A stretch of 9,228 bases of DNA, taken from the IMG/VR virus record IMGVR_UViG_2526164665_000028. The stretch is one strand, 5' to 3'. A model generated the notes under the pieces. The model saw only the letters and a list, made by a program, of their open reading frames with translations, had not been told where the DNA came from and did not search any database. The position numbers and the translations under genes are program-made. How positions within the stretch are numbered: the first letter of the stretch is position 1; the number at the start of each line of letters is the position of its first letter. Source of the DNA: a virus. Lineage: Duplodnaviria; Heunggongvirae; Uroviricota; Caudoviricetes. Positions 521 to 9,228 of this stretch are shown piece after piece.

Positions 521-793
521 TCAGACAGGAATTTGCTGACGGTTTGACAGCTTTGACGCGGAGCCATAGCGATTGAGAGTTTGCTGTTGTTTTTCCGGTA
601 TTTTTGCTTTGTCTGATTCCTGTTCATTGCACCGAGGCTTCATAATTATCGTATCCACGCTTTCCAGTGCGGTAAATGTGCAGGAACATTCCAGATTCTG
701 GCACTGATACCATGAGCGTTTAACCGACGGAGCTTCATAGGCGCTGGTTCTGGCGTGAGCGACCGCGCCACATTCAGGACACTTCAGGGCCAT
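521..793 (-). CDS. delta: Ogr/Delta-family zinc-finger late transcription activator (single-domain)
   Basis: ATG at 793 (the longer ORF to 895 overlaps psu). Product MALKCPECGAVAHARTS...YQCQNLECSCTF has the C-x2-C-x22-C-x4-C Ogr/Delta zinc-finger spacing and the AHARTS motif. Start lies 1 nt after the psu stop. Confidence 0.8.
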   Translation of the reverse strand: MALKCPECGAVAHARTSAYEAPSVKRSWYQCQNLECSCTFTALESVDTIIMKPRCNEQESDKAKIPEKQQQTLNRYGSASKLSNRQQIPV

Positions 794-794
794 A

Positions 795-1349
795 TCAGCA
801 CACTCCTTTTTCATTAAGTCGGTTAAGGCGGGCCAGGAAAACTTTATGTTGTGCCGGGGTGAAACTGGCTGAAGCATCAGCGCGCATTGATGCATCCACC
901 GTTAATCCGGTTTCGTCGATAATGCTCTTATATGCTGCTGAAATTACCGGAGTACGCATTTCCGTTTGTCGGGCTACAGCGGTTCGTAATATTTTCATTG
1001 CCGCCTCAAGCCCGTATGGAGCGCAAAGAAAAGGAGCCAGAGCGTCAGTGAGTGCATCACCATGCTCGCTCATGAAGTTTTCCGTTGCGCTTGTAACACA
1101 ACTCTCCAGCACAATCTGATGAGCATAAAGACCATCCCGTGCAGCACAGTTAATCTGCCATTCGAGGACTGCAAGACGCTCACGAAGATCCTCAAGCTGG
1201 CTGGCATATGCTGCCGGTTTTTCTTCAGTATCCAGCAGAGCCGCCAGACGAAGCTGGTAGGTACTTTGCGTATTACGTAGTGTCAGCCAGCTTTTTATCG
1301 CCGAGCGGTAATCGTTGAGTGCTTCCTGAGTAATGGTTCCGGCATTCAT
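795..1349 (-). CDS. psu: Polarity suppression protein Psu (capsid decoration / Rho antagonist)
   Basis: 184-aa product with blocks resembling P4 Psu as I recall it (...ALTDALAPFL..., ...SFTPAQHKVF...). ATG at 1347-1349 overlaps the sid stop (ATGA). Confidence 0.8.
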   Translation of the reverse strand: MNAGTITQEALNDYRSAIKSWLTLRNTQSTYQLRLAALLDTEEKPAAYASQLEDLRERLAVLEWQINCAARDGLYAHQIVLESCVTSATENFMSEHGDALTDALAPFLCAPYGLEAAMKILRTAVARQTEMRTPVISAAYKSIIDETGLTVDASMRADASASFTPAQHKVFLARLNRLNEKGVC

Positions 1350-2098
1350 TTCTTCTCGCCCCCTTTAACCATGTCACGCTGTTTAAGCATCCGTGAACGC
1401 GCTGCAGGGCTGGGGGATTGTCTGGCATCCTGGATGGCTTTATCGTCCGCATAAATGCTGATCCCCGGCAGGGTAATATCATCGGTTGAAGATACGTTAC
1501 AGGACAGTGCCGGAGTGGTGAGTTGCTCGCTGATAAATTGCTTCAGCACACTTTCGGGGTCGTTTACGGTATGAACTACACCGATAACAGCAGAAGCGCT
1601 TCGGCCCAGAGTCATTTTCAGCAGTCCAAGGATCTGAATAAGTTTCTGACCGTGTTCCTTCATAAACTCATTCCAGAGCCACACTGCATGAGTTTCAATC
1701 AGGCGATTATGTTCGCTGATGTAGTGGTTTGCAGCATCCGCAGTTTTCCAGGGCAGGAATTCATTTTCTGCCGCCTGAGCTGCCAGCAAATCTTCGAACT
1801 CATCCAGTGTTTCGCGTCCGAGGGCGATTTCTGCCCGCAGTTTTTTCATGCGTGGCGTCATATTTCCCTGATTCTCACGAAACAGGTTTCGCCATTCATC
1901 ATTAAGCGCCTGCGTTTCCGTTTTTGTATCTTCCTGACGTTTACGGATAGTTTCAATCATTGCAGCAGCTTCAGTTTGTTTTCGTCGTTCTTCCTGCCAG
2001 ACAGCTTTTGCTGCCTTAACTTTATCCACCGCTTCGCGAATTTTCGGTGGGAGGGAGGGTGTAATGTTTGCATCAGGGATCTGGTTAACAGTAGTCAT
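1346..2098 (-). CDS. sid: Sid-like capsid size-determination (external scaffold) protein
   Basis: 250 aa from ATG at 2098, preceded by GGAG 6 nt upstream. The longer ORF to 2131 starts with TTG and has no SD. Size and position (first gene of the leftward late operon, upstream of psu) match P4 sid; coiled-coil-like composition. Confidence 0.75.
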   Translation of the reverse strand: MTTVNQIPDANITPSLPPKIREAVDKVKAAKAVWQEERRKQTEAAAMIETIRKRQEDTKTETQALNDEWRNLFRENQGNMTPRMKKLRAEIALGRETLDEFEDLLAAQAAENEFLPWKTADAANHYISEHNRLIETHAVWLWNEFMKEHGQKLIQILGLLKMTLGRSASAVIGVVHTVNDPESVLKQFISEQLTTPALSCNVSSTDDITLPGISIYADDKAIQDARQSPSPAARSRMLKQRDMVKGGEKK

Positions 2099-2181
2099 GA
2101 CTGCTCCGGTAGTGTTTTGTTGTTGTGTCAATTGTGCCGGGGTCCATACAAGCGCACTACCGAGGAGGATTGTGTCAGTGA

Positions 2182-2470
2182 CTGAACAATGACCTTGTTC
2201 TGGCTAGCCAGAGAAAGGTGTCATGTCTGATCTACACGCTTCCTTTAATACATACTATTCACTACTGTTCACTTCAATAAAAATATAGTAAATACATGTG
2301 GTTAAGTGGTGTAGTGTTTTAATTAAAGTGATCATCTACTGTTCATGACTGTTCACAGAGATAAAATTAAACATATATTTCTTTTTCATATAAGTCGCGA
2401 TATTTATTTCAGTTTATTACTGGATCTTTTCTCCTCACCAATATTCACCAGTATTCACCAGTATTCAATA
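2182..2470. repeat. Iteron cluster (TGTTCAC / ATTCACC type), putative satellite ori-like region
   Basis: Repeated TGTTCAC-like motifs at 2182-2187 (rc), 2267-2273, 2340-2346, 2350-2356, plus tandem 10-bp repeats GTATTCACCA at 2441-2460 with degenerate flanking copies (2431-2470), in an ORF-free AT-rich region. Confidence 0.5.
2340..2357. promoter_or_regulatory. TGT-N12-ACA dyad (Ogr/Delta-type activator site candidate, or an iteron pair)
   Basis: TGTtcatgactgttcACA matches the TGT-N12-ACA dyad found upstream of P2/P4 late promoters; it is also made of two iteron-like half-sites, so the assignment is ambiguous. Confidence 0.3.
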
Positions 2471-3012
2471 CATATTCTATGTAAAGAATAAAAGATGTCT
2501 TATGTCTGTTTAATAATTAAACATTCAACCTCCCTGCACTCAGTTGCATTTCAGGAAAATATTCATAAAAATGAATTTGTCTGATGTTCATTAAACACAT
2601 CCGGATACATGCGGAAGTAAGATGGTAATTTAATTTCTTTAATCATCGGATTTATTGATACATATGGTGAGCTGTTTATTTTTGGCCGTTTTGGCTCTTT
2701 TATTAATCAGGTGTTGTCTTAGTGCTTATGATGTAACGCCCTGAATGATATGGGCTGGTTCAGATTTGAGCTGTGATCCTGCCTAGTGTAATAGACTTTT
2801 TTATTATTGATGCTCCTTATTATATTCCATAAAGGAATTGTTTGTTTTTGTTCGTTTCATACGGTTTTTAGCTGTTTTATTTTTTGAGAAATCAACATTT
2901 CACACAAAATAAATAAAGCATGCGCGAGCCGCTTATATAAACATAATAAGGAGCTACCTGAATCCGCATGGAATTGCCCGGACTGTTGTAAACATATTAG
3001 AGAGGTAGCCAG

Positions 3013-3273
3013 ATGAATAGTATTTCCGTTTCCACCCCGGCACCAGCTGCTCCGGTGCTCCCGGTTCCGGCTCAGCAGGAGCGCTTCATACGATTACCTG
3101 AAGTGATGCACCTTTGCGGGCTATCCCGTTCAACCATCTACGACCTTATCAGCCGCGATGCCTTCCCGCAGCAGATATCCCTGGGTGGAAAAAATGTGGC
3201 CTGGGTACAGTCGGAGGTCAGTGCATGGATGGCGGCGCGAATTGCTGCCCGCGAGCAAGGAGGCCATGCGTGA
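3013..3273 (+). CDS. alpA: AlpA/Vis-family phage transcriptional regulator (excisionase-like HTH)
   Basis: 86 aa; AGAGG 7 nt upstream of ATG. Product ...[49 protein letters not shown]... is the AlpA/Vis helix-turn-helix signature. Confidence 0.85.
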
Positions 3274-3308: not shown

Positions 3309-3338
3309 TTGCGTCCTGATATCTTTTCCAGGTATAGT
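3309..3338 (+). promoter_or_regulatory. Candidate sigma70 promoter (PLE-like) for the immunity leader
   Basis: TTGCGT (3309-3314), 18-bp spacer, TATAGT (3333-3338), about 30 bp upstream of the first antisense-RNA target site. Confidence 0.3.
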
Positions 3339-3367
3339 TTTCCCGCTGCCGCAAAATCGGCTGCCGG

Positions 3368-3395
3368 GCGTAGGAACCCGAGTTACTTATTGGCG
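3368..3395 (+). promoter_or_regulatory. seqA-like bipartite target for the CI-like antisense RNA
   Basis: Half-sites GTAGGAAC (3370-3377) and CTTATTGG (3386-3393), complementary to TTCCTAC (3545-3551) and CCAATAAG (3529-3536) on the same strand. Confidence 0.5.
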
Positions 3396-3400
3396 ACACC

Positions 3401-3423
3401 AGACGCGCCGTGCGTCTTTTTTT
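3401..3423 (+). terminator. Intrinsic terminator-like hairpin in the immunity leader
   Basis: AGACGC-GCCGT-GCGTCT perfect 6-bp stem followed by TTTTTT. Confidence 0.5.
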
Positions 3424-3487
3424 ACGTCGTTGCTCAGGCACACCCATTTTTCGGGCTGCGGTGCTTATACCTTAGCCCCTTTCAGAT

Positions 3488-3572
3488 AATGGTGGTCCGG
3501 GCGGGGCAGCCTTCGGGCTGGCCGGTTTCCAATAAGGCCGGTATTCCTACCCCCGTTCGGGTCACCACCCAT
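3488..3572 (+). ncRNA. CI / C4-type antisense immunity RNA (boundaries approximate)
   Basis: GGTGGT (3491-3496) pairs with ACCACC (3564-3569) as a terminal stem; internal UUCG-closed hairpin CAGCC-TTCG-GGCTG (3507-3520); exposed region 3526-3552 carries the two blocks complementary to the upstream and downstream targets. The only ORF here (3571-3813, alternative frame) is likely spurious. Confidence 0.5.
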
Positions 3573-4042: not shown

Positions 4043-4362
4043 AATCACGCACTCTTTCCCTTTCACTTCGGGTAGCGTTGTATCGCCGCGCGGTAGCCTG
4101 CGCCTGGTTGAGTGCCTGCTATCAGCAAAACCGCCATCTGCAGCTCACTCTGGATGAAATTGAAACCGCTATTGCCCGTGAGCTTGAAGGATTTTATCTG
4201 CGACAGCACGGGCAAACAAAAGGCATGGAAATCGCCTGCGCCCTGCTTTCAGACCTGATGGAATACGGCCCTCTAATGTCCTGTCCCGCACTCTCCCAGC
4301 TCGGAATAGCCGTAATGGATGAGTTATGCGTCCGTCACATCAAAAAGCCGGTTTTACACTGA
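4039..4362 (+). CDS. Hypothetical protein of the satellite left operon (immediately upstream of primase)
   Basis: 107 aa; GGAGG at 4027-4031 upstream of ATG 4039; translationally coupled to the preceding ORF. Confidence 0.6.
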
Positions 4363-4376
4363 GGGAGAACTGCGTC

Positions 4377-6710
4377 ATGTCAGGAATGAAAGTCAGTCAG
4401 GCCGTGAAGGCTGCCCGCGGTCACTGGGCTCAGATTCTGCCAGCGCTGGGCGTGAATATATTGAAAAATCGCCATCAGCCTTGCCCGGTCTGTGGCGGTA
4501 AAGATCGTTTTCGCTTCGACGATCAGGAAGGACGCGGAACATGGTTCTGCAATCAGTGCGGAGCCGGGGATGGTTTAGCGCTTGTCACCAGGGCACTGAA
4601 TGTGGATATCAGTGAAGCAGCTGACAGGATACATGGACTGACACATGATCTGTCTGTAGTTAATTCCGAGGTCAGGACGTTAACCGCCGATACCGATAGC
4701 GGGAAAGATGCAGCGGCAGCACTTGCCGCGCGACTGCTGCAAGCCTCGCGTGAATCTGCCGGAAACACTTATCTTACACATAAAGGTTTCCCGGAGCATA
4801 TTTGCCATGAGCTGACTTCAGCTCATAAGGCCGGTGGTATGATGTTCCGCCCCGGTGATTTGATCGTCCCACTCTATAACGCTGACGGGGAGCTGGTGAA
4901 TATTCAGCTCATCAGTGGCAATGGTAGCAAGTGTTTTCTTAAAGGAGGTCAGGTTAAGGAGGCCTATCATCTGATAGAAGGGGGCGGGAGTTCTGTAAGA
5001 AGGATTTGGATTGCGGAAGGTTACGCCACGGCGCTTACCATTCATTATTTGACAGGAGAAGCCGTCATGGTGGCATTTTCGTCGGTCAACTTTCTTTCTC
5101 TGAGCAGCGTTGCCCATAATAAGTATCCGGGATATCAGTTAATTATTGCAGCGGACCGCGATCTGAATGGTTCAGGCCAGAACAGGGCTGAAACTGCTGC
5201 AAAAGCGAGTCAGTGTGACATTGTGCTGCCACCGGTTTTTGGTGACTGGAATGATGCGCTTACCCAATACGGAGAGGAATCCACCCGGAAGGCAATTCTT
5301 GAGGCTTTGAAGCCACATAACGCCAGTCCTTTCGACACAATGAGTGAAGCAGAATTCACAGCGATGAGTGTCAGCGAAAAAGCTCAGAGGGTTCGGGAGC
5401 ATTACAGGGATGCACTGGCGGTTGATCCGAACGGGCAGCTTTTATCCCGCTACGAGTCTGGAGCGTGGAAAGTTATTTCTCAGTCAGATTTTGCCCGAGA
5501 TGTCGCAGCCCTTTTCCAGCGCCTCGGGGCACCGTTTTCCTCAGGAAAAATTGCCTCACTGGTGGAAACATTAAAGTTAATTGTTCCGCAGCAGCAAAAT
5601 CCGTCACGTCATCTGATTGGTTTTCGTAATGGCGTTCTCGATACGCGAACAGGGCTTTTTAGTCCGCACTGTAAAGAGAACTGGCTGCGTACCCTGTGTG
5701 AAGTCGATTTCACGCCACCGGTAAAGGGGGAAACGCTTGAAACTCATGCCCCGGCATTCTGGCGTTGGCTGGACCGGGCCGCCGGACACAAGCCAGCAAA
5801 ACGCGACATTATTCTTGCAGCGTTATTTATGGTGCTGGCGAACCGCTATGACTGGCAGCTCTTTCTGGAAGTGACTGGCCCTGGTGGAAGTGGCAAAAGT
5901 ATTCTGGCTGAAATTGCGACCATGCTTGCTGGAGAGGATAACGCCACCTCTGCGACCATTGAAACGCTGGAGTCCCCGCGAGAACGTGCGGCTCTGATAG
6001 GTTTTTCTCTTATTCGCCTGCCTGATCAGGAGAAGTGGAGCGGCGACGGCGCCGGGCTTAAGGCTATAACTGGTGGCGATGCAGTATCTGTGGACCCCAA
6101 ATATCAGAATGCTTATTCAACACATATTCCGGCGGTTATCTTGGCCGTAAATAATAATCCTATGCGCTTCACTGATCGCAGTGGTGGTGTGTCCCGCAGG
6201 AGAGTTATTCTGCATTTTCCTGAGCAGATAGCACCGGAAGAACGCGATCCGCAGTTGAAAGATAAAATTGCACGAGAACTGGCTGTGATTGTTCGTCAGC
6301 TCATGCAGCGTTTCAGCGATCCGATGAGCGCCAGAACATTGCTTCAGTCGCAGCAGAATTCTGATGAGGCTCTCACCATCAAGCGTGATGCTGATCCAGC
6401 ATTTGATTTTTGTGGCTACCTTGAGGCATTACCTGACACCAACGGTATGTTTATGGGGAACGCCAATATTGTCCCACGCCAGCCACGTACATACCTTTAC
6501 CATGCCTACCTCGTATACATGGAGGCTAATGGCTATAAAAACACCCTGAGTCTTACGATGTTTGGCAAAGGGTTGCCAGTCATGCTGAAGGAGTACGGGC
6601 TACATTATGAGAAACGGCGAACTAATCAGGGAATGCAAACTAACCTCACTTTGAAAGAGGAGAGTAATGCAGACTGGCTGCCCAAGTGTGATGAGCCAAT
6701 ATTAAAATAA
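4377..6710 (+). CDS. P4 alpha-type primase-helicase (zinc-ribbon, TOPRIM primase, SF3/D5-type helicase, C-terminal origin-binding region)
   Basis: ATG 4377 with GGGAG 9 nt upstream, giving 777 aa (the ORF call from 4326 overlaps the previous gene). N-terminal CPVCGGKDRFRFDD...WFCNQCGAGDG zinc-binding motif, TOPRIM-like IAEGYATALT...IIAADRD, Walker A VTGPGGSGKS. Confidence 0.9.
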   Translation: MSGMKVSQAVKAARGHWAQILPALGVNILKNRHQPCPVCGGKDRFRFDDQEGRGTWFCNQCGAGDGLALVTRALNVDISEAADRIHGLTHDLSVVNSEVRTLTADTDSGKDAAAALAARLLQASRESAGNTYLTHKGFPEHICHELTSAHKAGGMMFRPGDLIVPLYNADGELVNIQLISGNGSKCFLKGGQVKEAYHLIEGGGSSVRRIWIAEGYATALTIHYLTGEAVMVAFSSVNFLSLSSVAHNKYPGYQLIIAADRDLNGSGQNRAETAAKASQCDIVLPPVFGDWNDALTQYGEESTRKAILEALKPHNASPFDTMSEAEFTAMSVSEKAQRVREHYRDALAVDPNGQLLSRYESGAWKVISQSDFARDVAALFQRLGAPFSSGKIASLVETLKLIVPQQQNPSRHLIGFRNGVLDTRTGLFSPHCKENWLRTLCEVDFTPPVKGETLETHAPAFWRWLDRAAGHKPAKRDIILAALFMVLANRYDWQLFLEVTGPGGSGKSILAEIATMLAGEDNATSATIETLESPRERAALIGFSLIRLPDQEKWSGDGAGLKAITGGDAVSVDPKYQNAYSTHIPAVILAVNNNPMRFTDRSGGVSRRRVILHFPEQIAPEERDPQLKDKIARELAVIVRQLMQRFSDPMSARTLLQSQQNSDEALTIKRDADPAFDFCGYLEALPDTNGMFMGNANIVPRQPRTYLYHAYLVYMEANGYKNTLSLTMFGKGLPVMLKEYGLHYEKRRTNQGMQTNLTLKEESNADWLPKCDEPILK

Positions 6711-6746: not shown

Positions 6747-6771
6747 GGAAACGCACAAATGTAGAGATAGC

Positions 6772-6979
6772 TGTTCACTCTTCACCTCGCTGTTAACACG
6801 TAAACAATTGATATATAAGTTAAAAATGGCAGGGTGAATAGTGTGCATGGTTTTGCGAAAAAAAAGTATTTTTTGTAGAGTCAAGTCCCGGTTTGGATCC
6901 GTTTAACGGAACCTAACTAGATTGACTATTTCTCTGATGATTTTTGGATAAATAATCAACAAAAATCAAAATGTGAACA
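6772..6979. repeat. Second iteron cluster (crr-like), downstream of primase
   Basis: TGTTCACT (6772-6779), TTCACC (6781-6786), TGTTAACA (6791-6798), GGTGAATA (6833-6840, rc TATTCACC), GTGAACA (6973-6979, rc TGTTCAC). Confidence 0.45.
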
Positions 6980-7060
6980 GAGAATGGTGGGGGCACAAAA
7001 AGGGGCATAATTGAATTAATTATAATTAAATTTCAATTTTTACAATAGGTTAAATGTGTG

Positions 7061-7082
7061 TGCGAGTCCGGCCTTCGCACCA
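7061..7082 (+). other. att core: 3'-terminal fragment of a tRNA-Leu (leuX-type) gene, probable attR / right boundary of the satellite
   Basis: TGCGAGTCCGGCCTTCGCACCA matches the T-loop/acceptor 3' end of E. coli tRNA-Leu(CAA) as I recall it (TTCGAGTCCGGCCTTCGGCACCA) with two differences. No 5' half is present, so this is a duplicated integration-site fragment, not a tRNA gene. Confidence 0.55.
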
Positions 7083-7615
7083 AGTTACTAAATTCCTTAC
7101 AATACAGTTAGTTAGACGATTAAATCTGTCTCTTTTGCCTGTAAGAAATGCTCTGTTATGTCCCTTGAAAAAGCCGCTGTGGTTGATAGTGGTAATTGGG
7201 ATGTTAACTCATAGCGGCGTGTCGTTCCAAGCGTCAAACACGTACTGACTCAACTTGAAAGCTATGACGTAGCCACCGTCTCTAAACAATCCCAAAACTT
7301 TTAGTGCAGCGCATTTTAGCCCGATGCCCCCATTCTGTCGCCGTCGCGAGACGCCGCAGGGGATAAACAGGTTTATGGTGGTCACGGTACTTGCAGACCA
7401 TATGCAAGCTCTGCCAGCGGTTCGGCCTCGCTCCCCTTGGGTACATGGTCATCCTGATAAGCCTCACTAACTGACATAACCCTGATGAAGTCGCAAGAGG
7501 CTCCGCTTGTTGTCTTACCACCAACGGGGCTTTATGGATTCTATTGCTTAATATATGATTGTATCAAACTTAGACTGCATAATTTAAACGAACATAACAA
7601 TCAGGCAGGGGAAGA

Positions 7616-8440
7616 ATGATAAAGCCATTTTCTGTGAGGTATGGTCATGTTGACGTTAGAGAGCATGTCCAGCTGAATGATCTTAATTCTGATACACGCA
7701 TGGCATTGTGGAATTGCTTATATCTTTTCCTTTGGACTAACAATCGTCAAACTGCTACAGCAACAAAATGTGCGCAGTCTGTGTGGATATATTATCTAAA
7801 TCAACCTGCGGATAATATTCCTCGTTATGAAAGTGGATACAAAAGTGATAAGACGTTGCTGACTGCTATCCGAGATTATATATATGGGGAAGCATGGTAT
7901 TTGGTATATGATTTAATTGAGTTCATCATTGAGAGAACTAATTCATATATTAATCTATCGAAGCATCTCAATTCCATCTTTAAAAAGCATGGCGTTGGTT
8001 ATACCATAATAAATGGTTGTATTACTCCTATTTCAAATGATAACGAAATTGAAAGTGTTCAGAACGCAGTTGATAATGGCACTGATTCATCGCGTAGCCA
8101 TTTCGAAAGGGCGTTACAACTAATGACGGATAGAGAGCAGCCAGACTACAGAAACTCGATTAAAGAGTCTATCTCTGCAATTGAATCTTTATGCAGGAAA
8201 ATCACGGGCAATGATAAAGGAACCTTGGGGGCTTGTCTTAAAGCTATAGAGGAAAAAGGATATATACACTCTGCAATGAAAGGCGCTTTTAGTCAGCTCT
8301 ATGGTTATACAAGTGATCAGGGTGGAATACGTCATGCGCTAACAGAAGAAGATGTAAATCCTACCTTAGCTGAAGCTAAATTTATGTTAGTCACTTGCAG
8401 TGCGTTCAGTAATTATCTGTTGTCAAAAATAAGTGATTAA
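7616..8440 (+). CDS. Hypothetical protein, tentatively AbiJ-like abortive-infection protein (HEPN/Abi_C-like C-terminal region)
   Basis: 274 aa; GGGGAAG upstream of ATG 7616; stop TAA at 8438-8440. Strongly AT-biased codons. N-terminus MIKPFSVRYGHV...ALWN and C-terminal ...YGYTSDQGGIRHALTEED... recall AbiJ-N/Abi_C proteins, but this is from memory of motif patterns only. Confidence 0.55.
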   Translation: MIKPFSVRYGHVDVREHVQLNDLNSDTRMALWNCLYLFLWTNNRQTATATKCAQSVWIYYLNQPADNIPRYESGYKSDKTLLTAIRDYIYGEAWYLVYDLIEFIIERTNSYINLSKHLNSIFKKHGVGYTIINGCITPISNDNEIESVQNAVDNGTDSSRSHFERALQLMTDREQPDYRNSIKESISAIESLCRKITGNDKGTLGACLKAIEEKGYIHSAMKGAFSQLYGYTSDQGGIRHALTEEDVNPTLAEAKFMLVTCSAFSNYLLSKISD

Positions 8441-8458
8441 TTACAGGTTTATAGTTAC

Positions 8459-8479
8459 GAGTGGGTTAGTTACCCACTC
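8459..8479. terminator. Hairpin between convergent genes (possible bidirectional terminator)
   Basis: GAGTGGGT-TAGTT-ACCCACTC 8-bp stem in the 48-bp gap between the convergent ORFs, with flanking A/T-rich sequence. Confidence 0.45.
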
Positions 8480-8488
8480 CCTTTAAAA

Positions 8489-8964
8489 TTATTCACCAGA
8501 CTCTAATCTTTTTTCTCTTTTCTCATCTCTCCTTTTTATTGCCAAATCGTGTTGCTCTTGCAGATACGTGCGTTCTTCGTTTCTATCGCTTGAAGTATAT
8601 ACGTCTGCTTTTACTTTTTTAGCTCCTTGTGCAATAGGTTTCCAATCCTCTCTTATACCTTTAATTTGTTCTGCAATTTGCGTCAATGGGCTTCTCGCTC
8701 CTAGATAACTTATTCCTTCAAATGTCGCCATGTCATACACATATTCATTTGTTTCTCTATCGTTTGATTTAGGTTTGCTTGCCCAGCTTATATTAATATT
8801 ATAAATTTGATCTTTGATTTGTTCATACTTACAGAGATTGCTGGTAAGTGATTGCCCATTTTTTAACACGCTTACCTTACTAAACGGAATCTCACTTTTT
8901 TCTCTATGCTCCGCATTTACTAGTGGAGGATCAAACACAACCTCAACATTATAGGCAGGTGAGG
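8489..8964 (-). pseudogene. Hypothetical protein, 5'-truncated by IS3-family insertion (remnant ORF; first ~44 codons of the 8489-9097 ORF are IS-derived)
   Basis: The ORF reads in frame across the IS terminus at 8965. Downstream of the junction the first in-frame ATG is far inside the ORF; only a GTG at 8936-8938 with a close GAGG is available. AT-rich composition like the neighbouring gene. Confidence 0.5.
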
Positions 8965-8975
8965 TGTACTGGCAA
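8948..8975 (-). promoter_or_regulatory. Hybrid outward promoter at the IS3 junction
   Basis: On the minus strand, TTGCCA (IS terminal repeat, 8970-8975), 16-bp spacer, TATAAT (flanking DNA, 8948-8953), reading into the truncated gene. Confidence 0.4.
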
Positions 8976-9228
8976 TAGCGGACACTACCATTTGTTCTTT
9001 TTTTAAGCAGCCATCTGATGATATTTTTCCCTGAAGGCTGCCGGGGAGATATTCCCCAGACGAGAGTGACGACGCTGACGATTGTAGAAAATCTCAATGT
9101 ATTCCCGTATTACTGAGATGGCTTCATCCCGGTTATTAAAACGATAGTGGCTCAGGCTCTCATTTTTCAGCGTTCCCCAGAAGCTTTCCATCGGAGCGTT
9201 GTCGTAACAGTTACCTTTACGCGACATT
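8965..9228 (-). mobile_element. IS3-family insertion sequence, terminal part (continues right of window)
   Basis: Terminus TGTACTGGCAATAGCGGACAC at 8965-8985 resembles IS3-family terminal inverted repeats (TG end, CAATAGxGGACAC block); the transposase C-terminus lies just inside it. Confidence 0.7.
9003..9228 (-). CDS. IS3-family transposase OrfB C-terminal fragment (integrase catalytic core end)
   Basis: ...GNCYDNAPMESFWGTLKNE...RDEAISVIREYIEIFYNRQRRHSRLGNISPAAFREKY is the conserved C-terminal region of IS3-family OrfB; stop TAA at 9003-9005; 5' end beyond the window. Confidence 0.8.
   Translation of the reverse strand, partial: MSRKGNCYDNAPMESFWGTLKNESLSHYRFNNRDEAISVIREYIEIFYNRQRRHSRLGNISPAAFREKYHQMAA

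Follow-up and report, generated by a model that had tools for sequence, protein, structure and literature searches.

The window, a stretch of 9,228 nucleotides, carries beside a remnant of the tRNA gene leuX an intact gene for a 274-aa AbiJ-NTD4/HEPN protein, which is a widespread, catalogued candidate phage-defence protein and not a new kind of system. Probably the gene acts on its own, its single protein being a candidate for abortive-infection defence in the AbiJ-NTD4/HEPN class (PADLOC PDC-S32), and the truncated gene that converges on it is, by the same reading, unrelated cargo. Taken as a whole, the locus is an unremarkable candidate for single-gene defence, known from existing catalogues, that sits in a cargo-swapping slot next to leuX (Table 1). 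Its domain architecture, HEPN fold, strongly conserved polar and charged HEPN residues, and solitary carriage on mobile elements are observed; dimerisation, sensing by the N-terminal domain, RNase activity, and defence activity are inferred.

A sequence-only reading of this DNA had described the locus as uncharacterised. This description fails if it is taken to mean unrecognised, as the family was described in 2013 (Anantharaman et al., PMC3710099) and possesses a Pfam profile, a PADLOC entry (PDC-S32), and a RefSeq name; it stands with respect to bench work, as the literature searched yielded no experiment on PDC-S32 or on any other AbiJ-NTD4 protein. The same search returned no paper containing the term “PDC-S32” or “P2-EC53”; S32 was not among the candidates included in a published test of PDC systems, and AbiJ, tRNA-Leu, and the flanking genes go unmentioned in a survey of E. 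coli defence islands.

Table 1. Features of the leuX-linked segment of the window, with positions counted from its first nucleotide
Feature	Position	Strand	Basis or remark
leuX (tRNA-Leu), degenerate 3′ end	7058-7082	+	Sequence GTGCGAGTCCGGCCTTC-GCACCA; coordinates approximate
ORF-free arm, 478 bp, ~50% GC	7083-7560		After leuX, before the variable cargo slot
Shine-Dalgarno-like AGGGGAAG	7607-7614	+	Read from the sequence; ATG at 7616
AbiJ-NTD4 + HEPN-fold gene, intact, 274 aa	7616-8440	+	ORF; WP_000594911.1; PADLOC PDC-S32
AbiJ-NTD4 domain, residues 4-153, alpha+beta	7625-8074	+	Pfam PF18863; secondary structure from AF2 model
HEPN-fold domain, residues 155-274	8078-8437	+	Non-canonical RNSIKE (179-184) and DQGGIRH (234-240)
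Hairpin GAGTGGGT-TAGTT-ACCCACTC, 8-bp GC-rich stem	8459-8479		Fold -14 kcal/mol, z -2.41
phrog_11802 gene remnant, C-terminal 156 codons + stop	8489-8959	-	Alignment to relatives of 228-234 aa
Hybrid promoter-like site: -35 TTGCCA in IS600 end, 16-nt spacer, -10 TATAAT in remnant	8948-8975	-	Consensus match only
IS600 end (IS3 family), including transposase C-terminus 9003-9227	8960-9228	-	rve_2/rve_3, RefSeq, breakpoint alignment

Domain architecture and the HEPN signature

The reading frame is genuine, as had been supposed, being preceded by a Shine-Dalgarno-like sequence and having 4,437 database homologues; RefSeq names the protein and attaches no pseudogene flag. A simple consensus scan detected no sigma-70-like promoter on the plus strand just upstream of the gene. 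The proposed AbiJ-type assignment was borne out by the Pfam search of the N-terminal domain, which returned AbiJ_NTD4 (PF18863; E 5.8e-27, 95.5 bits against a gathering cutoff of 34) with residues 4-153 placed on profile positions 2-151 of 152; all 43 of the 43 aligned relatives match this profile. Two PADLOC models of PDC-S32 were likewise matched, PDLC04997 (E 5.6e-104, residues 3-272 on profile positions 8-281 of 285) and PDLC04996 (E 1e-86), and no other PADLOC family was matched at E<=1. The terminal motifs on which the sequence-only reading had rested its assignment proved meaningful, falling on the invariant positions F5, S6, R8, G10, and W32 and on D234, G237, R239, and H240. In the AF2 model (pLDDT 81.4, pTM 0.72) the C-terminal domain adopts the four-helix up-and-down fold of HEPN proteins, and the loop bearing R239-H240 is the least confident part (pLDDT <50 for residues 230-240). 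A profile search of the PDB found no relative with a solved structure, its ribosomal-protein match (E 0.26) being due to chance.

The protein is a member of the AbiJ-NTD4/PDC-S32 family, which is defined only computationally, and nothing sets it apart from that family: it shares with AbiJ-NTD4 and AbiJ-type HEPN proteins the architecture (an alpha+beta NTD4 of ~150 aa followed by HEPN), the length class of 270-300 aa, and the occurrence as a solitary gene on mobile elements. The NCBIfam model STM4504/CBY_0614, the prototype of 2013, gives a sub-threshold match only (15.8 bits, cutoff 150), which places the protein on another branch than the prototype. Lactococcus lactis AbiJ (Abi-859), a validated abortive-infection gene, and S. 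aureus SadR are likewise single-protein systems with a C-terminal HEPN domain, and the N-terminal domain of the lactococcal protein is unlike that of the 274-aa protein. [quoted passage not shown] The closest known proteins also include the minimal HEPNs TT1696 (1ufb), AF0298 (2hsb), and ST0689 (1wol), the sacsin HEPN domain (3o10), and the HEPN toxins of HEPN-MNT (5yep/7ae2), AbiV (9bj5), and LsoA/RnlA.

The N-terminal AbiJ-NTD4 domain is presumed to be the sensor or regulatory part. Under the hypothesis of an AbiJ-NTD sensor joined to a HEPN toxin, put forward in the 2013 HEPN analysis (PMC3710099), this domain would sense a phage component and would keep the C-terminal HEPN domain inactive; infection would free the HEPN domain, which would probably be dimeric and would then damage RNA and halt growth before phage progeny are formed. 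This mechanism is modelled on the 2013 analysis together with related HEPN defences.

The 274-aa protein retains all residues that are invariant in the family, which in the HEPN domain are H162, R173, D177, R179-N180-S-I-K183-E184, E190, H218, D234, G237, and R239-H240, and of 150 diverse representatives about 130 share the two family signatures, D-x2-G-x-R-H and RNS[IVM]KE. The canonical Rx4-6H motif, with which the last core helix of HEPN proteins opens, is absent, its expected place being occupied by R239-H240 followed by acidic residues, and a His 5-7 residues after the Arg at the R239 position is found in only one of the 130 motif-bearing representatives. RNSIKE (179-184) resembles RNxxxH with Glu in place of His. 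RNase activity is thus not assured, because Rx4-6H is missing and Glu stands at the His position of RNSIKE. Membership in Abi_C, which had been suggested for checking by profile search, is not supported by Pfam: the 274-aa protein has no match at E<=1, and 2 of its 43 relatives match with a best E of 0.24. The Abi_C motif R-polar-X-H (PMC13590631) differs from the arrangement seen here, namely R239-H240 without a downstream His, together with RNS[IVM]KE.

Among the alternatives, the one that best withstands these data, although it is still unlikely, is that the HEPN-fold domain is a non-nuclease module that binds a ligand or a protein and serves another role, such as addiction or stabilisation, regulation, or anti-defence. 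The lack of Rx4-6H in all but one of the motif-bearing representatives and the failure to match Abi_C speak for this alternative, and the homologues in phage genomes, which include a 165-aa version spanning query residues 113-269 in Rhizobium phage RHEph01 (Autographiviridae), fit a role that benefits the phage as well as they fit defence. However, invariant R, H, N, K, D, and E residues in such a constellation are what an active site typically shows, and a DUF4145 alignment would put R239 roughly at the position of the canonical R. Moreover, the HEPN Abi proteins that come closest among those characterised act as RNases or in defence, and the family stands among the phage defence candidates of PADLOC. 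A further proposal, tentative and rather unlikely, is that the NTD4-linked HEPN clade (about 4,000 clusters at 50% identity), with its two signatures in place of Rx4-6H, constitutes a catalytically distinct branch of the superfamily, whose members would be either RNases with a new active site or non-nuclease effectors or sensors, and which would act in a single-gene defence either way. The non-canonical signature would, if the protein does defend against phages, provide a useful test of how far the HEPN active site can vary.

Distribution of the gene and its convergent neighbour

Of complete E. coli genomes, 8.6% carry the AbiJ-NTD4 gene intact, those of Nissle 1917 and ATCC 25922 among them, and the gene is at least 99% identical in 468 of 469 E. 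coli genomes. If the protein defends against phages, it represents a compact single-gene system, and its carriage by Nissle 1917, ATCC 25922, and O26 STEC means that it could affect the outcome of phage therapy and phage typing. In Klebsiella and Enterobacter islands an AbiJ-NTD4 gene lies 38 bp after the integrase; in Pantoea it forms a three-gene int-AbiJ-resolvase mini-island; in Pectobacterium it is a moron within a contractile-tail gene cluster; and in the temperate Curtobacterium phage Barebow it adjoins the integrase. The homologues are accessory cargo of mobile elements; a housekeeping role, which would have told against the original proposal, is not what they show. As expected of a single-gene PDC-S32 system, the gene thus occurs alone beside integrases, in a tail cluster, and in a three-gene mini-island, and it lacks the convergent partner in Klebsiella, Enterobacter, Pantoea, Pectobacterium, and Xanthomonas.

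Another alternative is that the module is decaying island debris and the AbiJ-like gene a non-functional hitch-hiker, kept by linkage only. The surroundings are rich in insertion sequences (IS600, ISEc52/IS911-like ends, IS30, and IS66), the neighbouring gene is a pseudogene, and in a few genomes the AbiJ gene is itself truncated or split by IS1. We regard this explanation as improbable, given that the reading frame is of full length, the same as that of its relatives, and is not flagged as a pseudogene, that its identity is so high in all but one of the E. coli genomes, and that the complete set of family-invariant residues is preserved.

The convergent ORF (8489-9097, minus strand) is a chimera of a gene remnant and an IS600 end. 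Homology to the uninterrupted E. coli gene ends at 8961, and from 8960 the sequence is that of the IS600 end (TGAGGTGTACTGGCAATAGC...). RefSeq annotates an “IS3-like element IS600 family transposase” and marks the remnant as a partial pseudogene, so that the suspected loss of the 5′ end to an IS3-family element is upheld by annotation and breakpoint alignment. The partner is not, as had been stated, without a recognisable family. The remnant is 78% identical to a full-length relative (P0160) that matches phrog_11802, a family of phage membrane proteins, with E 1.3e-115, and at 79% identity the partner resembles both ORF1 of the P2-EC53 Z region and gp24 of phage R18C. A structure model depicts the full-length partner as a single-pass membrane protein of ~230 aa with a transmembrane helix and an Ig-like beta-sandwich; in the remnant about 78 codons are missing from the N-terminal end, and with them the transmembrane helix and the first two strands of the sandwich. 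Comparison with an IS-free partner, which had been recommended, is misleading in E. coli, where the 190-aa form had already lost its helix to an older IS3-family insertion before IS600 arrived; every E. coli copy seen is without it.

The partner family is the sole ORF of the P2-EC53 Z region, and in phage R18C its homologue lies between the tail-fibre-assembly and tail-sheath genes. The 79% identity to the Z-region ORF1 relates it to the P2 Z/fun lysogenic-conversion genes and to P2/P4 hotspot cargo. The P2 Z/fun genes act in superinfection exclusion. Judged from its sequence relationships, the remnant is a decayed phage “lysogenic conversion” membrane-protein gene that an IS3-family element truncated first and IS600 truncated again, and it is almost certainly non-functional here. 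The hybrid promoter-like site formed across the IS600 junction aims into the remnant; with 11 of 12 consensus matches it is the top site in 7000-9000.

The sequence-only reading had treated the two genes as one module, and a two-gene defence system, for instance a sensor and effector pair, might indeed have been inactivated here by IS600. Several points lend themselves to such a view: E. roggenkampii has the same convergent pair at the same spacing of 48 bp with the partner intact at 234 aa, about 436-469 E. coli genomes have inherited the two genes together, and membrane proteins serve as effectors in several defence systems (PMC9122126). We nevertheless consider it very improbable. Convergent genes cannot form an operon, and neither a second gene on the AbiJ strand nor tandem repeats were found. 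The partner is missing at all 14 of the other loci that were inspected (L010-L019 and L024-L027), whose AbiJ-NTD4 relatives are 41-61% identical, and its family is far smaller (91 matches versus 4,437 for AbiJ-NTD4). Conversely, it occurs without AbiJ-NTD4 in islands of K. michiganensis, in the P2-EC53 Z region, and in phage R18C, and in Klebsiella the two genes are alternative cargo of the same integrase-adjacent slot. In E. coli, furthermore, the AbiJ gene has stayed intact and nearly invariant despite the lack of a transmembrane helix in its neighbour. PADLOC, finally, places PDC-S32 in its “S” series of candidates, the letter presumably standing for single-gene. The pairing itself is confined to E. 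coli and E. roggenkampii, and the module is best resolved into two genes each known without the other; a loose functional link between them is conceivable because the same convergent adjacency is found in both species. The outcome is that a catalogued candidate was confirmed, the two-gene idea corrected, and the supposedly intact E. coli partner shown to be already wrecked. The hairpin in the intergenic gap may serve as a shared terminator of the convergent genes; it has no T-run, and a simple terminator scan called no intrinsic terminator, this hairpin included.

The conserved arm and the cargo slot beside leuX

The succession of tRNA remnant, ORF-free stretch, and sharp fall in GC content that had been noted in the sequence is supported by the composition, which drops from a GC fraction of 0.52 at 7201-7500 to 0.35-0.40 across 7501-9000 (~36% GC downstream of the ~50% GC arm). 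ARAGORN detected no intact tRNA in the window. The degenerate segment 7058-7082 aligns to GGTTCGAGTCCGGCCTTCGGCACCA of the intact leuX 3′ end in Enterobacter roggenkampii (locus L003), and the alignment shows the same remnant in E. coli WCHEC020031. E. coli O26:H11 11368 (100% identical) has intact leuX upstream of the satellite integrase and the order leuX, P4-like int, cargo, IS66, delta, psu, sid-like, alpha, att remnant, module. The degenerate leuX segment is thus the att remnant that bounds the P4-like satellite on the right, and it also marks where the older island was first joined; the foreign composition and the position just outside a satellite at a tRNA-linked hotspot are thereby corroborated.

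The arm at 7083-7560 is found in 630 of 5,426 E. coli genomes and is annotated in none of them. Its identity to E. roggenkampii (96-100%) exceeds that of the genes downstream, and in RS571, C6, and E. roggenkampii it directly follows intact leuX, with differing genes behind it. It contains no credible ORF, its short ORFs of 58-80 aa having no Pfam match, which together with tblastn searches using three island integrases (E >= 0.23) disposes of the idea of an integrase pseudogene. An ncRNA is likewise rejected: no Rfam match was obtained at E<=1, the sole Rfam matches of the window being the P4 immunity RNAs elsewhere, and folding was not in excess of that of shuffled sequences on either strand (z +0.67 and -0.16).

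AbiV, a HEPN toxin, is paired with an RNA antitoxin (PMC13064643), and an arm that is more conserved between E. coli and E. roggenkampii than the coding sequence and carries neither ORF nor annotation could bring to mind a type III toxin-antitoxin-like arrangement (AbiV, AbiF, ToxIN), in which it would encode an RNA antitoxin or regulator of the HEPN protein; we attach hardly any weight to this, since the same arm precedes unrelated cargo in RS571 and C6 and therefore belongs to the island and not to AbiJ, since the AbiJ-NTD4 genes of Klebsiella, Enterobacter, and Pantoea lie 38-45 bp after an integrase without any arm, and since the arm has no tandem repeats, no Rfam match, and no better folding than shuffled sequence, and comparison of the loci already largely refutes the arrangement.

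The AbiJ gene and the partner remnant lie in a variable cargo slot behind the 478-bp arm, which probably once abutted leuX; when the P4-like satellite later integrated into leuX, the module was probably displaced from the tRNA gene by the length of one element. The arm beside leuX may mark a cargo-swapping slot in a family of resolvase/helicase islands, among whose exchanged cargo may be AbiJ-NTD4, the phrog_11802 protein, a DUF3800 set, and other genes.

The AbiJ-NTD4 protein and its C-terminal domain

The 274-aa protein, whose ORF is preceded by a good Shine-Dalgarno sequence (AGGGGAAG), matches Pfam AbiJ_NTD4 over residues 4-153 (95.5 bits, where the gathering cutoff is 34) and, along its whole length, the PADLOC candidate system PDC-S32 (E 5.6e-104); the exact sequence is held in RefSeq as WP_000594911.1, "AbiJ-NTD4 domain-containing protein". 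The sequence-only reading had suggested an Abi/HEPN protein: the AbiJ-type N-terminus stands, but Abi_C gives no match, even at E<=1. The terminal motifs quoted in that reading fall on invariant positions (F5, S6, R8, G10 and W32; D234, G237, R239 and H240). Its description of the locus as uncharacterised does not hold; the locus is an already known candidate and not a new one, because the protein's family was described in 2013, is present in Pfam and PADLOC, and is named in RefSeq. Added here are structural confirmation of the HEPN fold, a non-canonical motif shared across the clade, the architecture of a cargo slot by leuX and, for the neighboring gene, its identity and its two truncations.

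At 90% clustering, 4,437 homologues were found, nearly all of 270-300 aa. Rare architectures include a ~260-aa C-terminal extension that ends in a Cys-rich C-x6-C-x2-C-x5-C segment (P0289, 539 aa), a long N-terminal extension (P0334, 529 aa), and a partial tandem duplication of the HEPN region (P0235, 219 aa). Gp38 of the Rhizobium phage RHEph01 (Autographiviridae; locus L028, 454-951), at 165 aa, matches only query residues 113-269; it retains the HEPN domain together with the end of the N-terminal domain, most of which is missing.

Pfam assigns no family to the last 120 residues of the 274-aa protein. Among 43 relatives, two match Abi_C (best E 0.24) and nine match the HEPN family DUF4145 (best E 0.009, over residues 180-230), and the predicted structure confirms a HEPN fold. 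The hallmark of HEPN domains, Rx4-6H, is absent from that of the 274-aa protein. Going by the DUF4145 alignment and by location within the domain, one would expect the canonical Arg near residue 239, where an invariant G-G-I-R239-H240 stands in the family, with acidic residues after it; the other invariant block, R179-N180-S-I-K183-E184, has the RNxxxH spacing with Glu in place of His. The R239-H240 loop is the lowest-confidence part of the predicted structure. With the C-terminal domain alone as query against 1.84 billion cluster representatives (E<=0.001), 4,046 representatives were recovered, almost all of the same architecture; among the best 150 of these, 130 carry D..G.RH and 128 carry RN[ST].KE, and a His 5-7 residues past the Arg is present in only one. 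Judged by this shared architecture and these recurrent motifs, the AbiJ-NTD4-linked HEPN domains therefore make up one large, coherent clade that has a signature of its own. The dense invariant set of R, H, N, K, D and E residues resembles an active site, and the domain is a putative RNase.

After the model for AbiJ-NTD proteins (PMC3710099), the gene would encode a single-protein defense of the abortive-infection type, in which the N-terminal domain would sense a phage component and restrain the HEPN domain, which, once released, would damage RNA. Related HEPN Abi proteins support this general scheme: AbiV degrades rRNA; lactococcal AbiJ is a true Abi gene, with escape mutants in phage ssDNA-annealing proteins (PMC13064643); and SadR, an Abi_C protein, reportedly defends against plasmid transformation and phage infection, Abi_C being described as a probable non-specific RNase (PMC13590631). 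The literature searched yielded no experiment on the NTD4 clade. With the motif non-canonical as well, defense through the HEPN domain is favored only moderately; the main alternative is a HEPN fold with a non-catalytic or otherwise different role.

The convergent neighbor

The sequence-only reading was mistaken in joining the AbiJ-NTD4 gene to its neighbor as a two-gene module. The two are not one system, because they are convergent (48 bp separate the stop codon of the 274-aa ORF from the neighboring ORF), each occurs alone, they alternate in a Klebsiella slot, and their pairing is confined to E. coli and E. roggenkampii. Relatives of the AbiJ-NTD4 gene stand without the partner 38 bp downstream of the integrase in Klebsiella and Enterobacter islands, in a three-gene int-AbiJ-resolvase element in Pantoea, in a contractile-tail cluster (prophage or tailocin) of Pectobacterium brasiliense, flanked by the baseplate genes Phage_base_V and GPW_gp25 (L024, 8001-8855), within a variable region in Xanthomonas, and beside the integrase of the temperate Curtobacterium phage Barebow. 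K. michiganensis islands and P2-like phages have the partner but not AbiJ. Within one Klebsiella island family at one chromosomal site, by usp and lysR-type genes, the AbiJ-NTD4 gene lies directly past the integrase in K. pneumoniae (L010, 3679-5831), and the same slot in K. michiganensis (L006, 6001-9143) holds a phrog_11802 protein and two small ORFs, of 84 and 108 aa; the AbiJ-NTD4 and phrog_11802 genes are alternative cargo of a single slot. The same arrangement of both in E. coli and E. roggenkampii is best explained by co-inheritance of one DNA segment.

The partner had been described as of no recognizable family: it has none in Pfam, PADLOC or NCBIfam, yet it belongs to a small one (phrog_11802, 91 matches). 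Members of full length (228-234 aa) open with a hydrophobic helix (…ISAFAALLTAVATFFLWRV…); in a model of the full-length protein (pLDDT 81.5), a long transmembrane helix at the N-terminus is followed by an Ig-like beta-sandwich (residues 54-154) and two C-terminal helices. In phage P2-EC53, the Z region has a single ORF, a "putative lysogenic conversion protein" by annotation, which is 79% identical to the partner, and another such copy lies between the tail-fiber-assembly and tail-sheath genes in phage R18C; in P2-like phages, this is a classic site of moron or exclusion genes.

The copy in the window is twice truncated. The 190-aa E. coli form (WP_000227281.1, "complete" in RefSeq) lacks the first ~40 codons, which are replaced by an IS3-family (ISEc52/IS911-like) end in all ~436 genomes with this form. 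In O26, IS600 took more, leaving the last 156 codons (residue 79 onward); the 5' loss to an IS3-family insertion had been recognized correctly, as homology to an uninterrupted E. coli copy ends at 8961 and the IS600 end starts at 8960. A -35 element in the IS600 end (TTGCCA) and TATAAT in the remnant make an 11/12 promoter-like site directed into the truncated gene, which could be an IS-created hybrid promoter.

The satellite and the cargo slot by leuX

Coordinates of the features (in the window unless another locus is named)
Feature	Position	Strand	Remark
delta	521-895	-	satellite gene
psu	795-1349	-	satellite gene
sid-like gene	1346-2131	-	satellite gene
HTH gene	3013-3273	+	satellite gene
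P4-type immunity RNAs	3332-3572	+	Rfam: C4 antisense RNA 83 bits, isrK 72 bits
alpha	4326-6710	+	satellite gene; primase/helicase domains
att remnant	~7058-7082		degenerate tRNA-Leu 3' end
arm	7083-7560		478 bp
Shine-Dalgarno sequence	7607-7614	+	
AbiJ-NTD4 gene	7616-8440	+	274 aa
partner ORF	8489-9097	-	
promoter-like site	8948-8975	-	
arm, other copy	L020 6001-6466		
arm, other copy	L021 6001-6476		
arm, other copy	L003 ~7600-8130	-	E. roggenkampii
int-psu hotspot	L023 20717-23281		NC_013361.1 5525716-5528280; outside window

The window is 100% identical to E. coli O26:H11 chromosomes, such as that of strain 11368, where the order is core yjgR and ahr, leuX (tRNA-Leu), the P4-like integrase, satellite cargo, an IS66 element, delta/ogr, psu, a sid-like gene, the immunity region, the alpha primase, the studied segment, IS600, more IS3-family debris and the fec operon. 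The cargo, at the int-psu hotspot, is an MltR-family regulator and a 528-aa hypothetical protein, followed by the IS66 insertion; a 2013 survey counted MtlR among the HEPN families (PMC3710099). The RNAs in the table, with a c4-a1b1 target element slightly below its Rfam cutoff (43.8 bits, + strand), constitute the satellite's P4-type RNA immunity region. Between the sid-like and HTH genes, ~800 bp (2190-3010) of 29-35% GC hold no ORF of at least 50 aa, and the right end of the satellite, from the alpha gene to the att remnant (6750-7050), is AT-rich (33-35% GC) and ORF-poor.

The boundary beyond was read correctly from the sequence. The tRNA-derived att core aligns to the 3' end of the real leuX of E. 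roggenkampii (ARAGORN found no whole tRNA in the window); the arm is about 50% GC and lacks any credible ORF, and past it GC drops to 0.35-0.40, up to 9000. Between E. coli and E. roggenkampii, the arm is 96-100% identical, above AbiJ (87-96%) and the partner (73-91%). Of 5,426 complete E. coli genomes, 630 carry the arm, never as an annotated feature, and 469 carry AbiJ. No sign of an RNA gene (Rfam; RNA folding) or of a dead integrase (integrase similarity; Pfam on its short ORFs) was seen in the arm.

The arm directly follows an intact leuX in E. roggenkampii and in strains RS571 and C6, with unlike genes beyond: one of the two strains carries a 915-bp hypothetical gene, and the other a 190-aa protein, a DUF3800 protein and another hypothetical. 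A resolvase-type recombinase gene lies beyond the cargo, with a DEAD-box helicase gene also in C6 and E. roggenkampii. The P4-like satellite later integrated into leuX in O26, as did another integrase island in ATCC 25922 and WCHEC020031, and in all three the old tRNA end is the att remnant ahead of the arm.
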